From: Eledone cirrhosa
Lineage: Eukaryota
Length of the DNA stretch: 64,000 nt
Direction: 5' to 3'
NCBI GenBank assembly: GCA_964016885.1
Contig: OZ024742.1
Coordinates: forward strand, 82,274,001-82,338,000
Of this stretch, positions 1 to 60,818 are shown piece after piece; position 1 is the stretch's first letter, and each line of letters starts with the position of its first letter. The translations under genes were made by a program, and so were the position numbers. Below the pieces are notes generated by a model that worked only from the letters and a program-made list of their open reading frames with translations, was not told the DNA's origin and did not search any database.

Positions 1-442
1 AGTTATACCATTTACGTGGTTTTGTCATTGCGTGTAATTGCTCTCAGCGATGCACATAATGACGTATTATTTTCGTTTTTTTCGTTCATTGCCAGAGAAC
101 GTCTCCATCAAGCACCTAATAGAATATTAGTCTATGACTTCATTTATCCCATAAATGTGGTTTTGTCTTTGCGTGTAATTGTTTTCATAGTGCCAAATAA
201 TGCCGTATTATCTTCATTTTTTTTTTCAGTTATTTGCCAGGGAACGTTTCACGAACCAACGTATCGTCTTCCTGTCTTCCGTCGGTTGCAACATTTTTTG
301 AAATATTTACTTCTGCGTTCACAGATTGACCTTTTTAGCTTTAGAAGATCCCGTTAAGGGTGAAAGCAGCGATTCTTTGCTTAAACTTTAATGTGTTATT
401 TTAATAAATATAAATATATATATATATATACACATACATACA

Positions 443-950: not shown

Positions 951-981
<31 letters not shown>

Positions 982-1141
982 AATTGGAATAAATGCTCTG
1001 AAATAGCGATACATATGTGAATATAGACATAGAATATTCGAAAATATTCTGTATGTTTATAATAAACATTTTGAAGACCTAATCGCTATAGAATAGAATA
1101 CGTCACGTATTACAATTAGATTCTCGATAAAAGCAAGGGAA

Positions 1142-1184
1142 GTAATCTACGCGTTTCATTCTCGTTAGAAATCATCAGGACTAC
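1142..1184 (-). ncRNA. Minimal type I hammerhead ribozyme (also at 1452-1494, 1762-1804, 2072-2114)
   Basis: Exact reverse complement of the motif at 2259-2301. Confidence 0.93.
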
Positions 1185-2258
1185 ATATCCAGTGCTTTTA
1201 TCGAGAATGACACAGCTAGAGACTTATAGAATACTTAGCTGTGTACAGGAACTGGTTTGAAAGAGCGGTTGCCGGTCCGGCAGAAATTAGAAATTGGAAT
1301 AAATGCTCTGAAATAGCGATACATATGTGAATATAGACATAGAATATTCGAAAATATTCTGTATGTTTATAATAAACATTTTGAAGACCTAATCGCTATA
1401 GAATAGAATACGTCACGTATTACAATTAGATTCTCGATAAAAGCAAGGGAAGTAATCTACGCGTTTCATTCTCGTTAGAAATCATCAGGACTACATATCC
1501 AGTGCTTTTATCGAGAATGACACAGCTAGAGACTTATAGAATACTTAGCTGTGTACAGGAACTGGTTTGAAAGAGCGGTTGCCGGTCCGGCAGAAATTAG
1601 AAATTGGAATAAATGCTCTGAAATAGCGATACATATGTGAATATAGACATAGAATATTCGAAAATATTCTGTATGTTTATAATAAACATTTTGAAGACCT
1701 AATCGCTATAGAATAGAATACGTCACGTATTACAATTAGATTCTCGATAAAAGCAAGGGAAGTAATCTACGCGTTTCATTCTCGTTAGAAATCATCAGGA
1801 CTACATATCCAGTGCTTTTATCGAGAATGACACAGCTAGAGACTTATAGAATACTTAGCTGTGTACAGGAACTGGTTTGAAAGAGCGGTTGCCGGTCCGG
1901 CAGAAATTAGAAATTGGAATAAATGCTCTGAAATAGCGATACATATGTGAATATAGACATAGAATATTCGAAAATATTCTGTATGTTTATAATAAACATT
2001 TTGAAGACCTAATCGCTATAGAATAGAATACGTCACGTATTACAATTAGATTCTCGATAAAAGCAAGGGAAGTAATCTACGCGTTTCATTCTCGTTAGAA
2101 ATCATCAGGACTACATATCCAGTGCTTTTATCGAGAATGACACAGCTAGAGACTTATAGAATACTTAGCTGTGTACAGGAACTGGTTTGAAAGAGCGGTT
2201 GCCGGTAAGTATTCTATAAGTCTCTAGCTGTGTCATTCTCGATAAAAGCACTGGATAT

Positions 2259-2301
2259 GTAGTCCTGATGATTTCTAACGAGAATGAAACGCGTAGATTA
2301 C
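2259..2301 (+). ncRNA. Minimal type I hammerhead ribozyme (also at 2569-2611, 2879-2921, 3189-3231)
   Basis: gtagtc-CTGATGA-t ttct aacg agaa t-GAAA-cgcg-TA-gattac: stem I gtagtc/gattac, stem II ttct/agaa, palindromic CGCG stem III, GUA cleavage triplet. Confidence 0.93.
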
Positions 2302-3363
2302 TTCCCTTGCTTTTATCGAGAATCTAATTGTAATACGTGACGTATTCTATTCTATAGCGATTAGGTCTTCAAAATGTTTATTATAAACATACAGAATATT
2401 TTCGAATATTCTATGTCTATATTCACATATGTATCGCTATTTCAGAGCATTTATTCCAATTTCTAATTTCTGCCGGACCGGCAACCGCTCTTTCAAACCA
2501 GTTCCTGTACACAGCTAAGTATTCTATAAGTCTCTAGCTGTGTCATTCTCGATAAAAGCACTGGATATGTAGTCCTGATGATTTCTAACGAGAATGAAAC
2601 GCGTAGATTACTTCCCTTGCTTTTATCGAGAATCTAATTGTAATACGTGACGTATTCTATTCTATAGCGATTAGGTCTTCAAAATGTTTATTATAAACAT
2701 ACAGAATATTTTCGAATATTCTATGTCTATATTCACATATGTATCGCTATTCCAGAGCATTTATTCCAATTTCTAATTTCTGCCGGACCGGCAACCGCTC
2801 TTTCAAACCAGTTCCTGTACACAGCTAAGTATTCTATAAGTCTCTAGCTGTGTCATTCTCGATAAAAGCACTGGATATGTAGTCCTGATGATTTCTAACG
2901 AGAATGAAACGCGTAGATTACTTCCCTTGCTTTTATCGAGAATCTAATTGTAATACGTGACGTATTCTATTCTATAGCGATTAGGTCTTCAAAATGTTTA
3001 TTATAAACATACAGAATATTTTCGAATATTCTATGTCTATATTCACATATGTATCGCTATTCCAGAGCATTTATTCCAATTTCTAATTTCTGCCGGACCG
3101 GCAACCGCTCTTTCAAACCAGTTCCTGTACACAGCTAAGTATTCTATAAGTCTCTAGCTGTGTCATTCTCGATAAAAGCACTGGATATGTAGTCCTGATG
3201 ATTTCTAACGAGAATGAAACGCGTAGATTACTTCCCTTGCTTTTATCGAGAATCTAATTGTAATACGTGACGTATTCTATTCTATAGCGATTAGGTCTTC
3301 AAAATGTTTATTATAAACATACAGAATATTTTCGAATATTCTATGTCTATATATATATATATA

Positions 3364-6984: not shown

Positions 6985-7345
6985 ATATTTGGCAATATTC
7001 CGGCATCGCTGGGCCAGCAATCGCTCTGTATAATCAGATCCTGATTATTACTGGAATTCTATAAGAATCCAGCATTTATAATTTTCGACGGAAGCAGGGG
7101 GTGCTTATAGCTATATATGGATACATACATACATATATATATATACAGGGAGTGCGTGGCTCTGATGATCGCCAACAGCGTGAAACAGACTGTTAACTTC
7201 TCCCCCTTCTTTAGCCGAAAAGAAGTACGTTTCATAGTGACTACTTTAAAGCCGATAGCGTATGGTCTTCTAAATGTTTTTAATTAAAAATACGGTATAT
7301 TGCCAAATATACTATACATATATTCATGTATATATCGCACCAATC
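6985..7345 (+). mobile_element. Diverged solo monomer of the retrozyme-like family A, with degenerate HHR at about 7150-7200
   Basis: Homologous to 48900-49200 (cgctctgtataatcagatcctgattatt...attctataagaat; ggtcttctaaatg..ttaattaa). Core CTGATGA-tcgc caaca gcgt-GAAA-cagactg-TT is present but stem I pairs poorly. Confidence 0.75.
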
Positions 7346-7366
7346 CTAATATGTATATATATATAT

Positions 7367-7626
7367 CACCTTGATCACCTTGTCCGACCAGTCTGTCGAG
7401 CACCAATCGGCGCCGCTGGTAACAGCACGTCGTGCTGTTTTAGCCGTAAGATAACGCCATCCCACTGGCTGGGCGGGCAGGCCGGTACTCATTTATACAG
7501 CTGAGTAAACTGGAGCAACGTAAAATAAAGTGTCTTGCCAAGGAAACAACACATCACCCGGTCCGAGATTTGAACTCACAACCTTTCGGTTGCAAGCCCA
7601 ATGCTCTAACCACTAAGCCATGCGCC
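7367..7626 (-). mobile_element. tRNA-derived SINE family 2
   Basis: Minus strand starts ggcgcaTGGCTTAGTGGttagagc...GAGTTCAAATC (Pol III A and B boxes), followed by a tRNA-unrelated body. Confidence 0.8.
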
Positions 7627-11855: not shown

Positions 11856-11915
<60 letters not shown>

Positions 11916-12077
11916 GCATACAGGTACACATACATATATGCACGCATCAGATTAGCCTACGTTTATTATAACGCCGGCCGCTTTGTTCGTTTGTTTGTCA
12001 ACAAAGCGAACAGCCTGAATTTATGCCATACGGTGTTAAGGCAACCACGTCACCTTTTTGTTCAACACTGACACAGG

Positions 12078-12122
12078 AACGATGTACTAGTTTCAAGCTT
12101 GTTAGCTATCATCAGCACCGTT
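12078..12122 (-). ncRNA. Minimal type I hammerhead ribozyme (also at 12607-12651, 13128-13172)
   Basis: Reverse complement of the motif at 13697-13741. Confidence 0.93.
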
Positions 12123-12376
12123 TACCCATCTGCCAGATAGTTGAACGTTCGAAAGTATATACTTTCCTTATGAAAATTAACGGCTGAGCAGCCTAATTTG
12201 CATATTGAGTGAGTTAAATCGGTCAGGCATACCGAAAACGATTAGTTGAAAAAAAATGAAAACGAAATTTCATTTCTCACTCTTAGTATGGCACTTACTT
12301 AAATGTAAGTATGTATGTATACGTACATACATATATGTATACAGACGTACAGTAGCATGCACATATATATATATAT

Positions 12377-12444
<68 letters not shown>

Positions 12445-12905
12445 GCATACAGGTACACATACATATATGCACGCATCAGATTAGCCTACGTTTATTATAA
12501 CGCCGGCCGCTTTGTTCGTTTGTTTGTCAACAAAGCGAACAGCCTGAATTTATGCCATACGGTGTTAAGGCAACCACGTCACCTTTTTGTTCAACACTGA
12601 CACAGGAACGATGTACTAGTTTCAAGCTTGTTAGCTATCATCAGCACCGTTTACCCATCTGCCAGATAGTTGAACGTTCGAAAGTATATACTTTCCTTAT
12701 GAAAATTAACGGCTGAGCAGCCTAATTTGCATATTGAGTGAGTTAAATCGGTCAGGCATACCGAAAACGATTAGTTGAAAAAAAATGAAAACGAAATTTC
12801 ATTTCTCACTCTTAGTATGGCACTTACTTAAATGTAAGTATGTATGTATACGTACATACATATATGTATACAGACGTACAGTAGCATGCACATATATATA
12901 TATAT

Positions 12906-12965
<60 letters not shown>

Positions 12966-13426
12966 GCATACAGGTACACATACATATATGCACGCATCAG
13001 ATTAGCCTACGTTTATTATAACGCCGGCCGCTTTGTTCGTTTGTTTGTCAACAAAGCGAACAGCCTGAATTTATGCCATACGGTGTTAAGGCAACCACGT
13101 CACCTTTTTGTTCAACACTGACACAGGAACGATGTACTAGTTTCAAGCTTGTTAGCTATCATCAGCACCGTTTACCCATCTGCCAGATAGTTGAACGTTC
13201 GAAAGTATATACTTTCCTTATGAAAATTAACGGCTGAGCAGCCTAATTTGCATATTGAGTGAGTTAAATCGGTCAGGCATACCGAAAACGATTAGTTGAA
13301 AAAAAATGAAAACGAAATTTCATTTCTCACTCTTAGTATGGCACTTACTTAAATGTAAGTATGTATGTATACGTACATACATATATGTATACAGACGTAC
13401 AGTAGCATGCACATATATATATATAT

Positions 13427-13484
<58 letters not shown>

Positions 13485-13696
13485 GCATACAGGTACACAT
13501 ACATATATGCACGCATCAGATTAGCCTACGTTTATTATAACGCCGGCCGCTTTGTTCGTTTGTTTGTCAACAAAGCGAACAGCCTGAATTTATGCCATAC
13601 GGTGTTAAGGCAACCACGCAAATTAGGCTGCTCAGCCGTTAATTTTCATAAGGAAAGTATATACTTTCGAACGTTCAACTATCTGGCAGATGGGTA

Positions 13697-13741
13697 AACG
13701 GTGCTGATGATAGCTAACAAGCTTGAAACTAGTACATCGTT
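13697..13741 (+). ncRNA. Minimal type I hammerhead ribozyme (also starting at 14224, 14747, 15246, 15769, 16278)
   Basis: aacggtg-CTGATGA-t agct aaca agct t-GAAA-ctag-TA-catcgtt: 7-bp stem I, 4-bp stem II, palindromic CTAG stem III, GUA site. Confidence 0.93.
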
Positions 13742-13903
13742 CCTGTGTCAGTGTTGAACAAAAAGGTGACGTGGTTGCCTTAACACCGTATGGCATAAAT
13801 TCAGGCTGTTCGCTTTGTTGACAAACAAACGAACAAAGCGGCCGGCGTTATAATAAACGTAGGCTAATCTGATGCGTGCATATATGTATGTGTACCTGTA
13901 TGC

Positions 13904-13969
<66 letters not shown>

Positions 13970-14142
13970 ATATATATATATATGTGCATGCTACTGTACG
14001 TCTGTATACATATATGTATGTACGTATACATACATACTTACATTTAAGTAAGTGCCACACTAAGAGTGAGAAATGAAATTTCGTTTTCATTTTTTTTCAA
14101 CTAATCGTTTTCGGTATGCCTGACCGATTTAACTCACTCAAT

Positions 14143-14195
14143 ATGCAAATTAGGCTGCTCAGCCGTTAATTTTCATAAGGAAAGTATATACTTTC
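14143..14195 (+). promoter_or_regulatory. Octamer ATGCAAAT plus PSE-like motif upstream of the HHR in each B1 unit (candidate internal snRNA-type promoter)
   Basis: atATGCAAATtaggctgcTCAGCCGTTAATTTTcataagGAAAGT. The octamer and aattttcata are conserved in the diverged B2 unit. Function is inferred. Confidence 0.4.
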
Positions 14196-14430
14196 GAACG
14201 TTCAACTATCTGGCAGATGGGTAAACGGTGCTGATGATAGCTAACAAGCTTGAAACTAGTACATCGTTCCTGTGTCAGTGTTGAACAAAAAGGTGACGTG
14301 GTTGCCTTAACACCGTATGGCATAAATTCAGGCTGTTCGCTTTGTTGACAAACAAACGAACAAAGCGGCCGGCGTTATAATAAACGTAGGCTAATCTGAT
14401 GCGTGCATATATGTATGTGTACCTGTATGC

Positions 14431-14492
<62 letters not shown>

Positions 14493-14959
14493 ATATATAT
14501 ATATATGTGCATGCTACTGTACGTCTGTATACATATATGTATGTACGTATACATACATACTTACATTTAAGTAAGTGCCATACTAAGAGTGAGAAATGAA
14601 ATTTCGTTTTCATTTTTTTTCAACTAATCGTTTTCGGTATGCCTGACCGATTTAACTCACTCAATATGCAAATTAGGCTGCTCAGCCGTTAATTTTCATA
14701 AGGAAAGTATATACTTTCGAACGTTCAACTATCTGGCAGATGGGTAAACGGTGCTGATGATAGCTAACAAGCTTGAAACTAGTACATCGTTCCTGTGTCA
14801 GTGTTGAACAAAAAGGTGACGTGGTTGCCTTAACACCGTATGGCATAAATTCAGGCTGTTCGCTTTGTTGACAAACAAACGAACAAAGCGGCCGGCGTTA
14901 TAATAAACGTAGGCTAATCTGATGCGTGCATATATGTATGTGTACCTGTATGCATATGT

Positions 14960-14991
<32 letters not shown>

Positions 14992-15452
14992 ATATATATA
15001 TATATGTGCATGCTACTGTACGTCTGTATACATATATGTATGTACGTATACATACATACTTACATTTAAGTAAGTGCCATACTAAGAGTGAGAAATGAAA
15101 TTTCGTTTTCATTTTTTTTCAACTAATCGTTTTCGGTATGCCTGACCGATTTAACTCACTCAATATGCAAATTAGGCTGCTCAGCCGTTAATTTTCATAA
15201 GGAAAGTATATACTTTCGAACGTTCAACTATCTGGCAGATGGGTAAACGGTGCTGATGATAGCTAACAAGCTTGAAACTAGTACATCGTTCCTGTGTCAG
15301 TGTTGAACAAAAAGGTGACGTGGTTGCCTTAACACCGTATGGCATAAATTCAGGCTGTTCGCTTTGTTGACAAACAAACGAACAAAGCGGCCGGCGTTAT
15401 AATAAACGTAGGCTAATCTGATGCGTGCATATATGTATGTGTACCTGTATGC

Positions 15453-15514
<62 letters not shown>

Positions 15515-15975
15515 ATATATATATATATGTGCATGCTACTGTACGTCTGTATACATATATGTATGTACGTATACATACATACTTACATTTAAGTAAGTGC
15601 CATACTAAGAGTGAGAAATGAAATTTCGTTTTCATTCTTTTTCAACTAATCGTTTTCGGTATGCCTGACCGATTTAACTCACTCAATATGCAAATTAGGC
15701 TGCTCAGCCGTTAATTTTCATAAGGAAAGTATATACTTTCGAACGTTCAACTATCTGGCAGATGGGTAAACGGTGCTGATGATAGCTAACAAGCTTGAAA
15801 CTAGTACATCGTTCCTGTGTCAGTGTTGAACAAAAAGGTGACGTGGTTGCCTTAACACCGTATGGCATAAATTCAGGCTGTTCGCTTTGTTGACAAACAA
15901 ACGAACAAAGCGGCCGGCGTTATAATAAACGTAGGCTAATCTGATGCGTGCATATATGTATGTGTACCTGTATGC

Positions 15976-16023
<48 letters not shown>

Positions 16024-16484
16024 ATATATATATATATGTGCATGCTACTGTACGTCTGTATACATATATGTATGTACGTATACATACATACTTACATTTA
16101 AGTAAGTGCCATACTAAGAGTGAGAAATGAAATTTCGTTTTCATTTTTTTTCAACTAATCGTTTTCGGTATGCCTGACCGATTTAACTCACTCAATATGC
16201 AAATTAGGCTGCTCAGCCGTTAATTTTCATAAGGAAAGTATATACTTTCGAACGTTCAACTATCTGGCAGATGGGTAAACGGTGCTGATGATAGCTAACA
16301 AGCTTGAAACTAGTACATCGTTCCTGTGTCAGTGTTGAACAAAAAGGTGACGTGGTTGCCTTAACACCGTATGGCATAAATTCAGGCTGTTCGCTTTGTT
16401 GACAAACAAACGAACAAAGCGGCCGGCGTTATAATAAACGTAGGCTAATCTGATGCGTGCATATATGTATGTGTACCTGTATGC

Positions 16485-16546
<62 letters not shown>

Positions 16547-16678
16547 ATATATATATATATGTGCATGCTACTGTACGTCTGTATACATATATGTATGTAC
16601 GTATACATACATACTTACATTTAAGTAAGTGCCATACTAAGAGTGAGAAATGAAATTTCGTTTTCATTTTTTTTCAAC

Positions 16679-40591: not shown

Positions 40592-41674
<1,083 letters not shown>

Positions 41675-53474: not shown

Positions 53475-53571
<97 letters not shown>

Positions 53572-53682
53572 GAAAAACTCGCATTACACTTATTGTAATC
53601 AGCCATGTAGATCGGAAATTTCTTTTTTATTTGAATTTGGCAATAGAATTCGGCTATTTACAGCTCGTATAGAGACAACTGA

Positions 53683-53806
53683 GTGGCCAGTCTACTGATA
53701 AGCAAATCTGGTTGATCAGTGGATCTGCTAATATGCAGATCTGACTGATCATCCAGTCTGCTTATATGCAAATCAGGCCGATCAGTCACTGTGTACTTTT
53801 GAAAAT
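53683..53806 (+). promoter_or_regulatory. Three about 33-bp repeats with octamer-like cores followed by a PSE-like motif
   Basis: AAGCAAAT, ATGCAGAT, ATGCAAAT (53766-53773), then TCACTGTGTACTTTTGAAAAT (53786-53806), which resembles a vertebrate PSE (TCACCGTAACTTGAAAGT-like). Confidence 0.45.
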
Positions 53807-53853
53807 AGCATATATTTTCACCAGCTCTGACAGTTTAGCAGGTGAATAGTAAG

Positions 53854-53897
53854 CTGTACTGATGAAGGGTGATACACAGAAACATTAGTGTATGCAG
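53854..53897 (+). ncRNA. Type I hammerhead ribozyme (weak stem II)
   Basis: ctgta-CTGATGA-agg gtg ata cac a-GAAA-cattagtg-TA-tgcag. Stem III is one change from the palindrome cactagtg. Confidence 0.72.
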
Positions 53898-54023
53898 ATC
53901 TGTTTACATGCCAACACAAGAGCAAGAATGAAGGGTTCATTCTACTGACATGACTATAAAATGGAGGCTTGTTTGCATAATTGCAAACGAATCGAATGTT
54001 ATTATTAATATTCGAAAAATATG

Positions 54024-54073
<50 letters not shown>

Positions 54074-55469
54074 CTGTGTGTGTGTAAGGTAAACAGAAAT
54101 AACAACACAATCGGTACAGTATATGGAAAGGATATATTAGGTTTACGCTTGATATAGCAGGAAGAAGGTCTTAACCTTTCGGACGTAACTCGGTTATCAG
54201 AAGAAAGAATGGGAAATAAGATAGATTGAGGGGACGGTTGGGCTGGAATTGGATAAAATGTCTTTAGATAAAAATAACAGGTCCATTCATGCTGACAGCT
54301 CGAGCTAAAGATCCGCATAAAGCACATTTAAGATCGCATGTTCGCTCTTGGTCATGCCTTCGTGTGCACAGAAAATGTATCTGTTTTTTCTTAGTTTAAT
54401 AGAGTTCAATTTAAAATGAAAGTACGTAAATCGATGTATTCAAATTAAATTATTTTAAATCCTATTGTTATTTATTGGATAAACAATCTATTGAAACGTA
54501 CACCACACTCATTTAACTGAAATAGCAAAACATATTTAAACGCCAAATAAAAAAAGCTCGAGGATTTTTTAAATGTCTATCTGCTGTTTAATTTAGCATT
54601 ACCAATTGTTTTTTAAATCACTATACTGTCGACTGCAGAGCTCTAATAGAATATTGTTTTAAAGATTTCTTTATTGATCAGAAATTTCAATTCGATGTCT
54701 TTAAGATTGGTTCCCATCAGTATATTTAATATGATAATAAGCATAATCGAAGTTATTCATTTCTTCTTTATATATAACAGAGGCCTAAGTGAACATTAAT
54801 TATTTCTACTTGCCGAATATATAGCCATCGATCAAATGATTTTACAATCATTTAAGAGTAGAAAGAATAAATTAGTGTTATTTTTGCAGGTGTATATTGA
54901 AATCACGTCGCGTTTGAATTTGTGTGGCCTCACTTCTGTTTTGATTAAAGAAATACAAAACAATCGTACATGTCAATTTAGTCGACTTTACTCACCTACA
55001 AACATTTATCAATTTTGTTTATCATGCAATTGTAATGTATATACTGATAAGATATTCGCGTTTAATATCATATTTTAGAAATACAGGCCATTAACTGGAG
55101 TTTTTATTTTCCGTAAAACGCTTCAATTTTTTAAATTTTCCTCGTTTCTATATACAAAAGAGCATTACCAGCAAATGGGCATAACACAAAATTCTACATA
55201 GCTTATAGTCGATTGCATTCCTGTACGATTTGAGTAATTTTCACCGATGGAAGATTATTTAATCTTGAAACAGTTTGATATTCTCTTAATATTGTAGCAA
55301 CTCGTTGATATATTCACCGATATAAGTAAAGAAGAGTGAAATATATATTTCTTTTCGTTTTTTTGTGAAAACATATTTTTGCTTCGGCAGCGAGGTTACT
55401 AATACGTATATGAAGGTGTTATATATGTATAATATATGTTTTAATATACACCGATCTCTCTCTTCTCTA

Positions 55470-59015: not shown

Positions 59016-60360
59016 CTTCATCATCATCATCATTCGTCGACTACTGTCGAGATGATGGATCTCACTCTTATGCCCCAGAATTCCCTGTCCCCCATCGCTG
59101 CCCCCAGGTTCTTTCTACTGATTCCCGTATCCCTAGAGATAACGTCGGGGAATGACAGCCTCCTACTCCTAGCAGGCTGGAGTCAGGGTTCCAGAGCGGA
59201 TATGATTTCATTGCTGGCACGGTGACAGTGGCCAGCAAATTGAGCTCTCCGGGATTTTAGAAGGGCGGAGGCACGAGGGAGTTTGCCATAGATTTTAGAC
59301 AAGGTGGGATGTCGTTTACAGGATAGGTTTTGCACTCTCATTAAGAGGCGGGTATATGTGCCATCCAATCTCCTCTCGAGTTGTGGATGTTAGTGTCCAA
59401 GTTTCGGATCCATAAAGTAATATGGGCTTAATGGTTGCTTGGAATATTCCCAGTTTTAGCTTGTTGGTAAGTTGAGATGTCCATATGGCGTGCATGCCAT
59501 TGCACACTGACCATGCCATACCCTTCCTGGTTAGAAAATCTTTATTGGAGGAGGAGATATATGAGCCAAGATACTTGTAATCTTCCACCTGATTAAGGGT
59601 GGTACCATTAAGGGTTCTGATGTGGTAGTTTGGGCTGTTTGCGCATCTGTTCACATACTCAGTCTTGGATTCGTTGAGATACAGTCCAACACAATCGGAC
59701 ACTTGCTCTAATGACTTCAAAAGACTCTCAGCATTTTCCAGTGACCGACTGATCAATGCGATGTCGTCAGCAAAGTCGGTGTCGGTCAAGTATTTTGCTG
59801 GGTAGCGTGAGCTTCTCCTAGGCTTTAGTTGGTATCCCCTATCCTGAATCCTATCCACAGACATGCGCAAAACATAATCCACAACAATGATAAATAGATA
59901 CGGAGCGAGGATTGAGAAAGGTGGTGTGTCCCTATCTGGGGTCAGGACAGTTGATTTGGTATCTGTATACATTACACGTATGGCCGCAATGATTTTATCA
60001 GAAATCCCATAGAGTTGTAGAATTTCAAACATCCCCAACCTGTCCACTGAGTCGAAGGCTTTTGAAAAATCAACAAAGACGAGTGCAAGGTCTAGATTGC
60101 GGTTTTGGGACTCCTCTATAAGTTGGCGAAGGCAGAGAATCTGGTTAAGTGTTGATCTACCTCTCCTAAATCCATTCTGGTTGTTACGAAGGATTGGCTC
60201 AAGAAATGGGATTAAGCGGTTAAGAAGAAGCTTGTTGTATATTTTTGCAGCAATTCCCATGAGAGAAATTCCTCTATAGTTGGTGGCTAAAGAAAGATCT
60301 CCTTTTTTGGGCATGGGGATGATTTGAGCTGCATGCCAGACGCTAGGTGGTTTATTGGTC
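59016..60360 (-). mobile_element. 5'-truncated RTE-like LINE with (GAT)n tail
   Basis: RT ORF continues by frameshift to about 59040. The tail tcatcatcatcatcat is at 59018-59033. Confidence 0.88.
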
Positions 60361-60416
60361 TCGAGGTAACTTAGGTGATAGGGGAGGATACCCGTTCGAA
60401 TTTCACTTTCAAGCAT
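59316..60416 (-). pseudogene. LINE reverse transcriptase (RTE-like), truncated
   Basis: IIPMPKKGDL..NYRGISL, QNGFRRGRST, FVDFSKAFDSV, LAPYLF (QG motif deleted), DFADDIAL, YKYLGS, LLYGSETW. Confidence 0.9.
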
Positions 60417-60818
60417 GTATTGAGTGCCTAAATAAGTGTATAAATAACATTACAATGTGTTAATAATATAAGGGAACTAGACAGAAAGACCCTCACCTCC
60501 AAAATATATACATATTTGCGTAAAGTCTTTCCAGGCATATGCTTGCTCCTCGCTGAAGTGAATAAATCGTATGACCGGCTGCATATCAACAGGATATTTA
60601 TAGCTTTTGCTGATTTTATCTCAATAAAACACTGTAGCATATGTTAAATAAATGGCATACGACTTCGAAATACGTATAATGAAATAAATAGCGAGAGACT
60701 AACGTAACCGACTTACTTGTATAGTATTATACTAAAACTCCGGATAAACATAAACTATTGAGTGGTTGATATTTGTTATGTAAAGGTCGGCAGATTTTCA
60801 ATCAACCAACTTTCTCGA

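Follow-up and report, generated by a model that had tools for sequence, protein, structure and literature searches.

The retrozyme family found at 53566-54019 (+) of the window (the 64,000-nucleotide stretch of Eledone cirrhosa DNA that was analysed) carries words that match its host's snRNA promoters just before its hammerhead. We estimate a probability of about 0.5 that this family, called family A here, is transcribed from its own Pol II promoter built of host snRNA-gene words, namely octamer blocks, a PSE core and a TATA-like word. That family A is a non-LTR retrozyme appears almost certain; judged by its letters it is a real feature, and an snRNA-type promoter in it is plausible. An earlier note on this DNA had proposed such a promoter. 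Its general idea stood, as the words of the unit match host snRNA words at host-like spacing, but the vertebrate-like layout it had in mind did not. The features of the window copy and its flanks are as follows.

53509-53569 (no strand): upstream flank, (TA)30 target microsatellite from the repeat scan; the whole flank reads (TC)n(TA)30
53574-53586 (+): 3'-box-like word, mutated in the window copy; marginal
53619-53628 (+): T-run at a second cluster of family A 3' ends; would stop Pol III
53687-53787 (+): three 33-bp repeats (TRF: period 33, 3.0 copies, 72% matches)
53714-53727 (+): PSE-core-like word of repeat 1, outside promoter spacing
53765-53777 (+): U6/U6atac-type proximal octamer block, common to families A, B and C
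53780-53793 (+): word resembling the PSE core of host Pol II snRNA genes, 79 nt ahead of the hammerhead core
53786-53806 (+): PSE word of the earlier note, present in the sequence
53801-53819 (+): small hairpin enclosing the TATA-like word (53811)
53836-53844 (+): predicted transcription start zone, from host spacings
53844-53905 (+): type I hammerhead fold, with stem I from 53844, CTGATGA at 53859-53865, GAAA at 53879-53882 and the predicted cut after 53892
54019-54086 (no strand): downstream flank, (TA)n(TG)n

The window copy comprises 1.03 units of family A, which means one 442-bp unit plus 12 nt (the majority unit has 438 bp). It sits in (TA)n and belongs to a different retrozyme family from those found elsewhere in the window, both as the earlier note had said. 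The same note had called it terminally redundant. This is right for 12 nt only (53566-53577 and 54008-54019), and since family A copies run on into the next unit, the redundancy reflects a circularly permuted tandem unit present 1.03 times. An LTR-like designed terminal repeat was therefore dropped. A search of the 3.0-Gb genome gave 1978 candidates, 40 of which were scored, and the best 39 other copies are 88-90% identical. The 438-bp unit, aligned from 30 copies, is non-coding, and most copies are dispersed and span 0.3-1.6 units. Among the 30 aligned, the window copy has diverged furthest (91.6% versus the majority).

The hammerhead was called from its core letters and three helices, because Rfam reports none, either at gathering score in the window or at E<=1 on three loci. 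In the predicted fold of the family A majority, the three helices have every pair formed (-13.3 kcal/mol). In the window copy GUA replaces GUC and stem II contains a G-A mismatch, and the fold of this copy reaches -3.0 kcal/mol. The core pattern is intact in 22/30 copies, 6 of which have the G-A variant of stem II; GUC is present in 19. The MFE fold is a different hairpin. The hammerhead descriptor matched 60 times in 1 Mb of evenly spaced sample DNA, and 0 times once that DNA was reversed. These 60 motifs (L161-L260) fall into several families, none of them family A; if the sample is representative, hammerhead motifs of the order of 100,000 would be present genome-wide, extrapolated from 60 per Mb.

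Host promoters were read from 130 loci of the Eledone cirrhosa U1, U2, U4, U5, U6 and U6atac genes (L031-L160); a literature search gave no description of this layout of snRNA promoters. The 18 non-redundant Pol II promoters (U1/U2/U4/U5) share a PSE core, ATCAGT-GGNTGTA, at -55..-59, in which C, A, T and a downstream T are present in 18/18. The best ATCAGT match served to anchor each PSE row, and the invariant T at position 9 lies outside this anchor. The earlier note had suggested comparing the unit with U1, U2 and U6 of this species. The comparison did bring out words shared with the unit, but the PSE of the host is not the vertebrate-like word that had been expected. Host Pol II snRNA promoters also carry AATTAA near -90 and, in most, a TATA-like word near -30, and the genes have a 3' box near AAAATCAGACT. 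A distal TTACCTCCCTTG-like word is common to 12 host promoters (-257..-271 in eleven, -288 in one). This distal element is not an octamer; an octamer within 400 bp was seen in only 1/18 Pol II promoters, at -399.

The octamer belongs to another class of host genes. Three U6 groups and the best U6atac locus carry TATG(C/G)(A/T)AAT(G/T)AG at -76..-78, together with TATA at -30, and the octamer matrix was built from these 4 promoters, chosen out of 30 U6/U6atac loci. The block is absent at -76..-78 in L064, L065 and 9/10 U6atac loci, which are mostly pseudogene-like. These two U6 loci and nine U6atac loci were left out of the matrices, as were near-identical tandem snRNA copies, the U4 locus L154 (no core) and L057/L058 (promoter insertion). 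In the last two, both U6 copies, an insertion of a ~190-bp repeat at the TATA box has displaced the octamer block from the gene. The 3'-box set was used without L072, whose 3' flank is the same as that of L071.

The three 33-bp repeats with octamer-like cores described in the earlier note were confirmed, with the cores AAGCAAAT at 53700, ATGCAGAT at 53733 and ATGCAAAT at 53766; the first-repeat core of the family A majority is ATGCAAAT, where the window copy has AAGCAAAT. Each repeat consists of an octamer-like word followed by a PSE-core-like word. The octamer block of the unit scored 16.3 bits at -94, which was reached by 2/2000 shuffles (host leave-one-out 12.4-15.3). The PSE core at host spacing, at -79, scored 8.4 bits. 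This score has a genome frequency of 1.8e-4 and lies in the low part of the host range (leave-one-out -1.1 to 20.4). The best PSE match in the unit, 11.1 bits at -145, is in repeat 1 and is not the spaced copy; it was reached by 47/2000 shuffles. The frame of the PSE had to be corrected, since the match starts 5 nt upstream of the word first proposed, whose frame gives 3.6 bits versus 8.4.

Applied to the unit, the host spacings imply a start at 53842-53844 (octamer), 53836-53840 (PSE) or 53841 (TATA-like word). These estimates together span 9 nt at the 5' border of stem I and replace the start near 53850 that had been suggested. The order of a small hairpin and then a hammerhead was found as claimed. 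The octamer-TATA spacing is 45 in family A, 42 in family B and 46-48 in the host. The TATA-like word of family A is non-canonical, and the T-N-N-CCT that follows it in the host is missing.

Other parts of the host layout were looked for in the family A unit. The AATTAA element is absent (best -9.4 bits at about -90). The host distal element is absent as well, with 1732/2000 shuffles scoring as high, and the claim that the octamer serves as a DSE was given up on this result and on the rarity of octamers in host Pol II promoters. A 3'-box-like word at +157 scored 8.9 bits (132/2000 shuffles), a value that depends on the alignment (12.5 bits before three host rows were realigned). In the 1-Mb sample, 0 of 345 sites with a PSE score of at least 8.4 had an octamer block 8-25 nt before the PSE. 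Since no host gene seen pairs the octamer block with a Pol II core, the layout of family A would be a chimera.

Two further hammerhead families of the window share the octamer block. Family B (~520 bp, window about 11900-16560) forms head-to-head arrays with an octamer block, its inverted partner and a TATA word, without a PSE. Family C (466 bp, 40689-41582 (-)) is present as 1.9 units, both hammerheads lacking the G of GAAA. The block lies at -89 in B and -101 in C (0/2000 shuffles each), so that its offset ranges from -89 to -101 across the three families, and it is the sole part common to A and B (87% over 23 nt). The matrix scan found no PSE core in B and C. These findings could also be read as a Pol II promoter of the ordinary kind, with a POU octamer and TATA, that came from a Penelope pseudo-LTR, with the PSE-like word as a by-product of a palindrome and SNAPc uninvolved. 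This reading would explain why the octamer block and the TATA-like word are common to A, B and C and the PSE core is missing in two of them. It also agrees with promoters carried by PLE pseudo-LTRs, according to the available part of PMC6765202, and with family A templates that run through whole units. Nevertheless, the likeness of the octamer block to the host U6 word extends past the 8-mer, and the PSE core of A keeps host spacing; family D, which has the host distal element too, shares this offset of the PSE core. We consider an ordinary promoter unlikely, if still a serious competitor.

Family D (310 bp, window 981-3352) consists of two head-to-head arrays of nearly identical units, and it does not align with family A. 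Its PSE core lies at -79 (8.5 bits, reached anywhere by 110/2000 shuffles), a TATA-like word follows 28 nt beyond the PSE core, and the host distal element lies 199 nt upstream (19.2 bits, 0/2000; the host has it at -257..-271). The distal word doubles as an arm of the hammerhead stem I. By its motifs, the layout of family D is more cleanly snRNA-type than that of family A. The remaining hammerhead families of the 1-Mb sample have neither an octamer block nor a PSE above the scores of A-D. Further single hammerhead-like motifs of other families are present in the window at 7162 (+), 48090 (+) and 42969 (-), and a partial tRNA match at 7563-7620 (-) is probably a SINE head.

The earlier note had asked for conservation of the motifs within the family, and the repeats are indeed retained. 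The 82 family A copies that span the block have three repeats in 75, two in 5, four in 1 and five in 1. The motifs are 0.95-0.99 identical among copies versus 0.966 overall. The copies are young and dead, at about 3-5% from the majority, so this conservation is uninformative on function. The third octamer block has 3.2% mismatches among copies versus 5.5% in the background, the copies not being independent, and the spaced PSE word varies like the background (5.0% versus 5.5%).

The repeat block also folds as a very stable RNA hairpin (z -5.5 for the window copy, z -7.2 for L002), and the repeat words may therefore be kept for RNA structure. The predicted fold of the circular family A unit reaches -167 kcal/mol, compared with -98 +/- 6 for 40 shuffles. 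The spaced PSE-like word overlaps the TGATCA palindrome of the repeat hairpin, and the octamer has an inverted partner in families B and C. Such pairing would be expected if there were no internal promoter, the words being RNA-level signals (hairpin arms, or sites for proteins or the reverse transcriptase) and the donors being read through from host genes or neighbouring elements. However, a hairpin needs pairing and not a fixed word, and yet families A, B and C all have the same 12-13 letters, placed at almost equal distances and identical to the host U6 word. Family D, in which the distal element, PSE and TATA-like word are spaced as in the host, likewise speaks against a purely RNA-level role, which we consider rather improbable.

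The ends of family A copies were mapped as offsets from the C of the hammerhead core, on which scale the cut is at +34. In copies that were not chosen by their 3' end, this end fell at +156..181 in 26/38 and at +200..222 in 11/38, which places 37/38 in two zones; most 3' ends run into (TA)n, just behind the 3'-box-like word or at the T-run. An inverted piece abuts the 5' end in 41/67 copies (L261, L279 and L321 were dropped from this map as duplicates). The 5' truncation and inversion, the fixed internal 3' ends and the microsatellite target are insertion marks of Penelope type. According to the available text of PMC8557442, Penelope-like elements leave truncated 5' ends, adjacent inverted copies, partial tandems and (TA)n targets; internal priming by them is described in the part seen of PMC11167929, and Penelope elements have been proposed as helpers of retrozymes. 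A scan of 42 of the 167 long ORFs for a Penelope helper gave 0 GIY-YIG matches. The window contains a 377-aa open frame with a reverse transcriptase domain at 59319-60449 (-) (RVT_1, E 9e-28). At L135:1170-1500, an inverted piece of family A directly abuts a U6atac-like copy, a hint that snRNAs may be copied by the same enzyme as family A.

The 5' ends were informative on the templates. They fell at +30..51 in 7/21, 2/6 and 6/10 passes, compared with 2, 0 and 1 in the following 22 nt (P 0.002-0.008 for the first set, 7/21). This excess at or just behind the cut fits ribozyme-cut templates, and a structural stop may have the same effect. Among 76 copies picked by the hammerhead alone, 70 reach upstream of -23 (L426 and L427, which look like one duplicated insertion, were both counted). 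It follows that the templates held the promoter region, as read-through multimers or as circles. The earlier proposal that the promoter is retained through multimer or circle copying is borne out to this extent, and the 5' ends would support both kinds of template equally. A 5'-end cluster at -23..-7 (9/67 at -18..-7) was considered as a fossil start site and rejected, since independent copies gave 3/73 versus 6.2 expected. Its loss removes support without being a refutation, because efficient cutting at +34 would hide start-site ends. The 5' ends show no step at the predicted start, a further point on the side of there being no internal promoter.

The T-runs bear on the choice of polymerase. 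A Pol III promoter of U6 type, made of the octamer block and TATA, would give an RNA of about 220 nt ending at the T-run. The strongest match of the unit is the U6/U6atac block, no T4 run occurs from the predicted start to +200, where T4 and T6 follow, and the 3' ends of 11/38 copies lie at the T-run; schistosome hammerhead repeats use Pol III, according to the part of the literature available to us. However, an RNA of about 220 nt would not contain the promoter, which 70/76 copies do contain, and the TATA word is non-canonical, without the T-N-N-CCT of the host. The unit holds four T-runs (T4, T6, T5 and T4), all of which read-through would have to pass. Because these runs block the read-through that the copies require, we think Pol III transcription very improbable, and Pol II read-through is favoured.

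A Pol II promoter of snRNA-gene words would then act in a tandem donor as follows. The promoter of one unit would fire at about 53836-53844, just before the hammerhead, and the polymerase would read on through the next unit or units. The hammerheads would cut part of the time, which would give unit-length or multimer RNAs and possibly circles. A Penelope-type reverse transcriptase would nick (TA)n, start from AU-rich priming sites some 125-180 nt behind the cut, and copy back through the promoter, which would thus be inherited. The triplicated block may stand in for the host distal element and also fold as an RNA hairpin.

A broader reading, which we offer as tentative and more doubtful than the promoter itself, is that the retrozyme families here each took different modules of the host snRNA promoter. 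Family D would have taken the distal element, PSE and TATA; family A perhaps took the tripled U6-type octamer block, PSE and TATA, and conceivably a 3' box. Retrozymes might then be SNAPc-driven snRNA-like genes with a promoter dual-coded as RNA structure, and snRNA-type self-promotion might be general in animal retrozymes. High expression in all tissues tested was reported for animal retrozymes (PMC7229834, in the part available). A promoter made of the words of housekeeping snRNA genes, if true, would explain such constitutive expression, and it gives the exact bases to mutate. The host snRNA promoter words could also serve U6-type expression tools in this animal group.

On how animal retrozymes are transcribed, the literature gave only the newt and schistosome cases, as citations. 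An internal promoter is not described in the available parts of PMC7229834 or 10.64898/2026.07.22.740005 (0 occurrences of 'promoter' in the latter), and the supplements of PMC7229834 may list mollusc retrozymes. A paper on the repeats of Octopus vulgaris has 0 occurrences of 'hammerhead'.

Compared with the metazoan non-LTR retrozymes of these two sources, as far as their available text goes, family A is alike in its non-coding unit of a few hundred bases, a single type I hammerhead, low GC, partial tandem copies, a strongly self-paired predicted circle and the proposed Penelope helpers. The mismatch at the stem II base of the window copy is also found in the axolotl HHR_Amex2. With 438 bp, family A is slightly above the 170-400 nt given for metazoan retrozymes in the part seen, and it is mostly dispersed. 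Penelope-like elements and their pseudo-LTRs, in the available text of PMC8557442 and PMC11167929, resemble it in priming at fixed internal sites and in having a hammerhead in the repeat; unlike them, family A has no ORF.

The snRNA gene promoters of the host and the DSE/PSE/TATA promoters of vertebrates (PMC9652321, in the part at hand) have in common with family A a PSE-like word and a TATA-like word, which in family A lie about 58 nt and about 30 nt ahead of the predicted start. Family A differs from them in having no distal element or AATTAA and in mixing words of Pol III genes with words of Pol II genes. The same text places the octamer of vertebrate snRNA promoters at -250..-170, whereas that of family A is proximal.

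The closest precedent is newt satellite 2, a hammerhead repeat that contains a promoter of snRNA type (Coats, Zhang and Epstein 1994, as cited in the available part of PMC2220036), read by Pol II (PMC6765202, likewise in part). The newt promoter was shown by experiment, whereas that of family A is predicted from sequence, with host-specific words. The octamer block of family A is proximal, of U6 type and tripled. Non-LTR retrozymes and an snRNA-type promoter in a hammerhead repeat (newt satellite 2) were thus already known. New here are a host PSE derived from 18 promoters, the finding that two unrelated families have their PSE at one and the same offset, the chimeric layout of family A and the end maps of about 170 copies.
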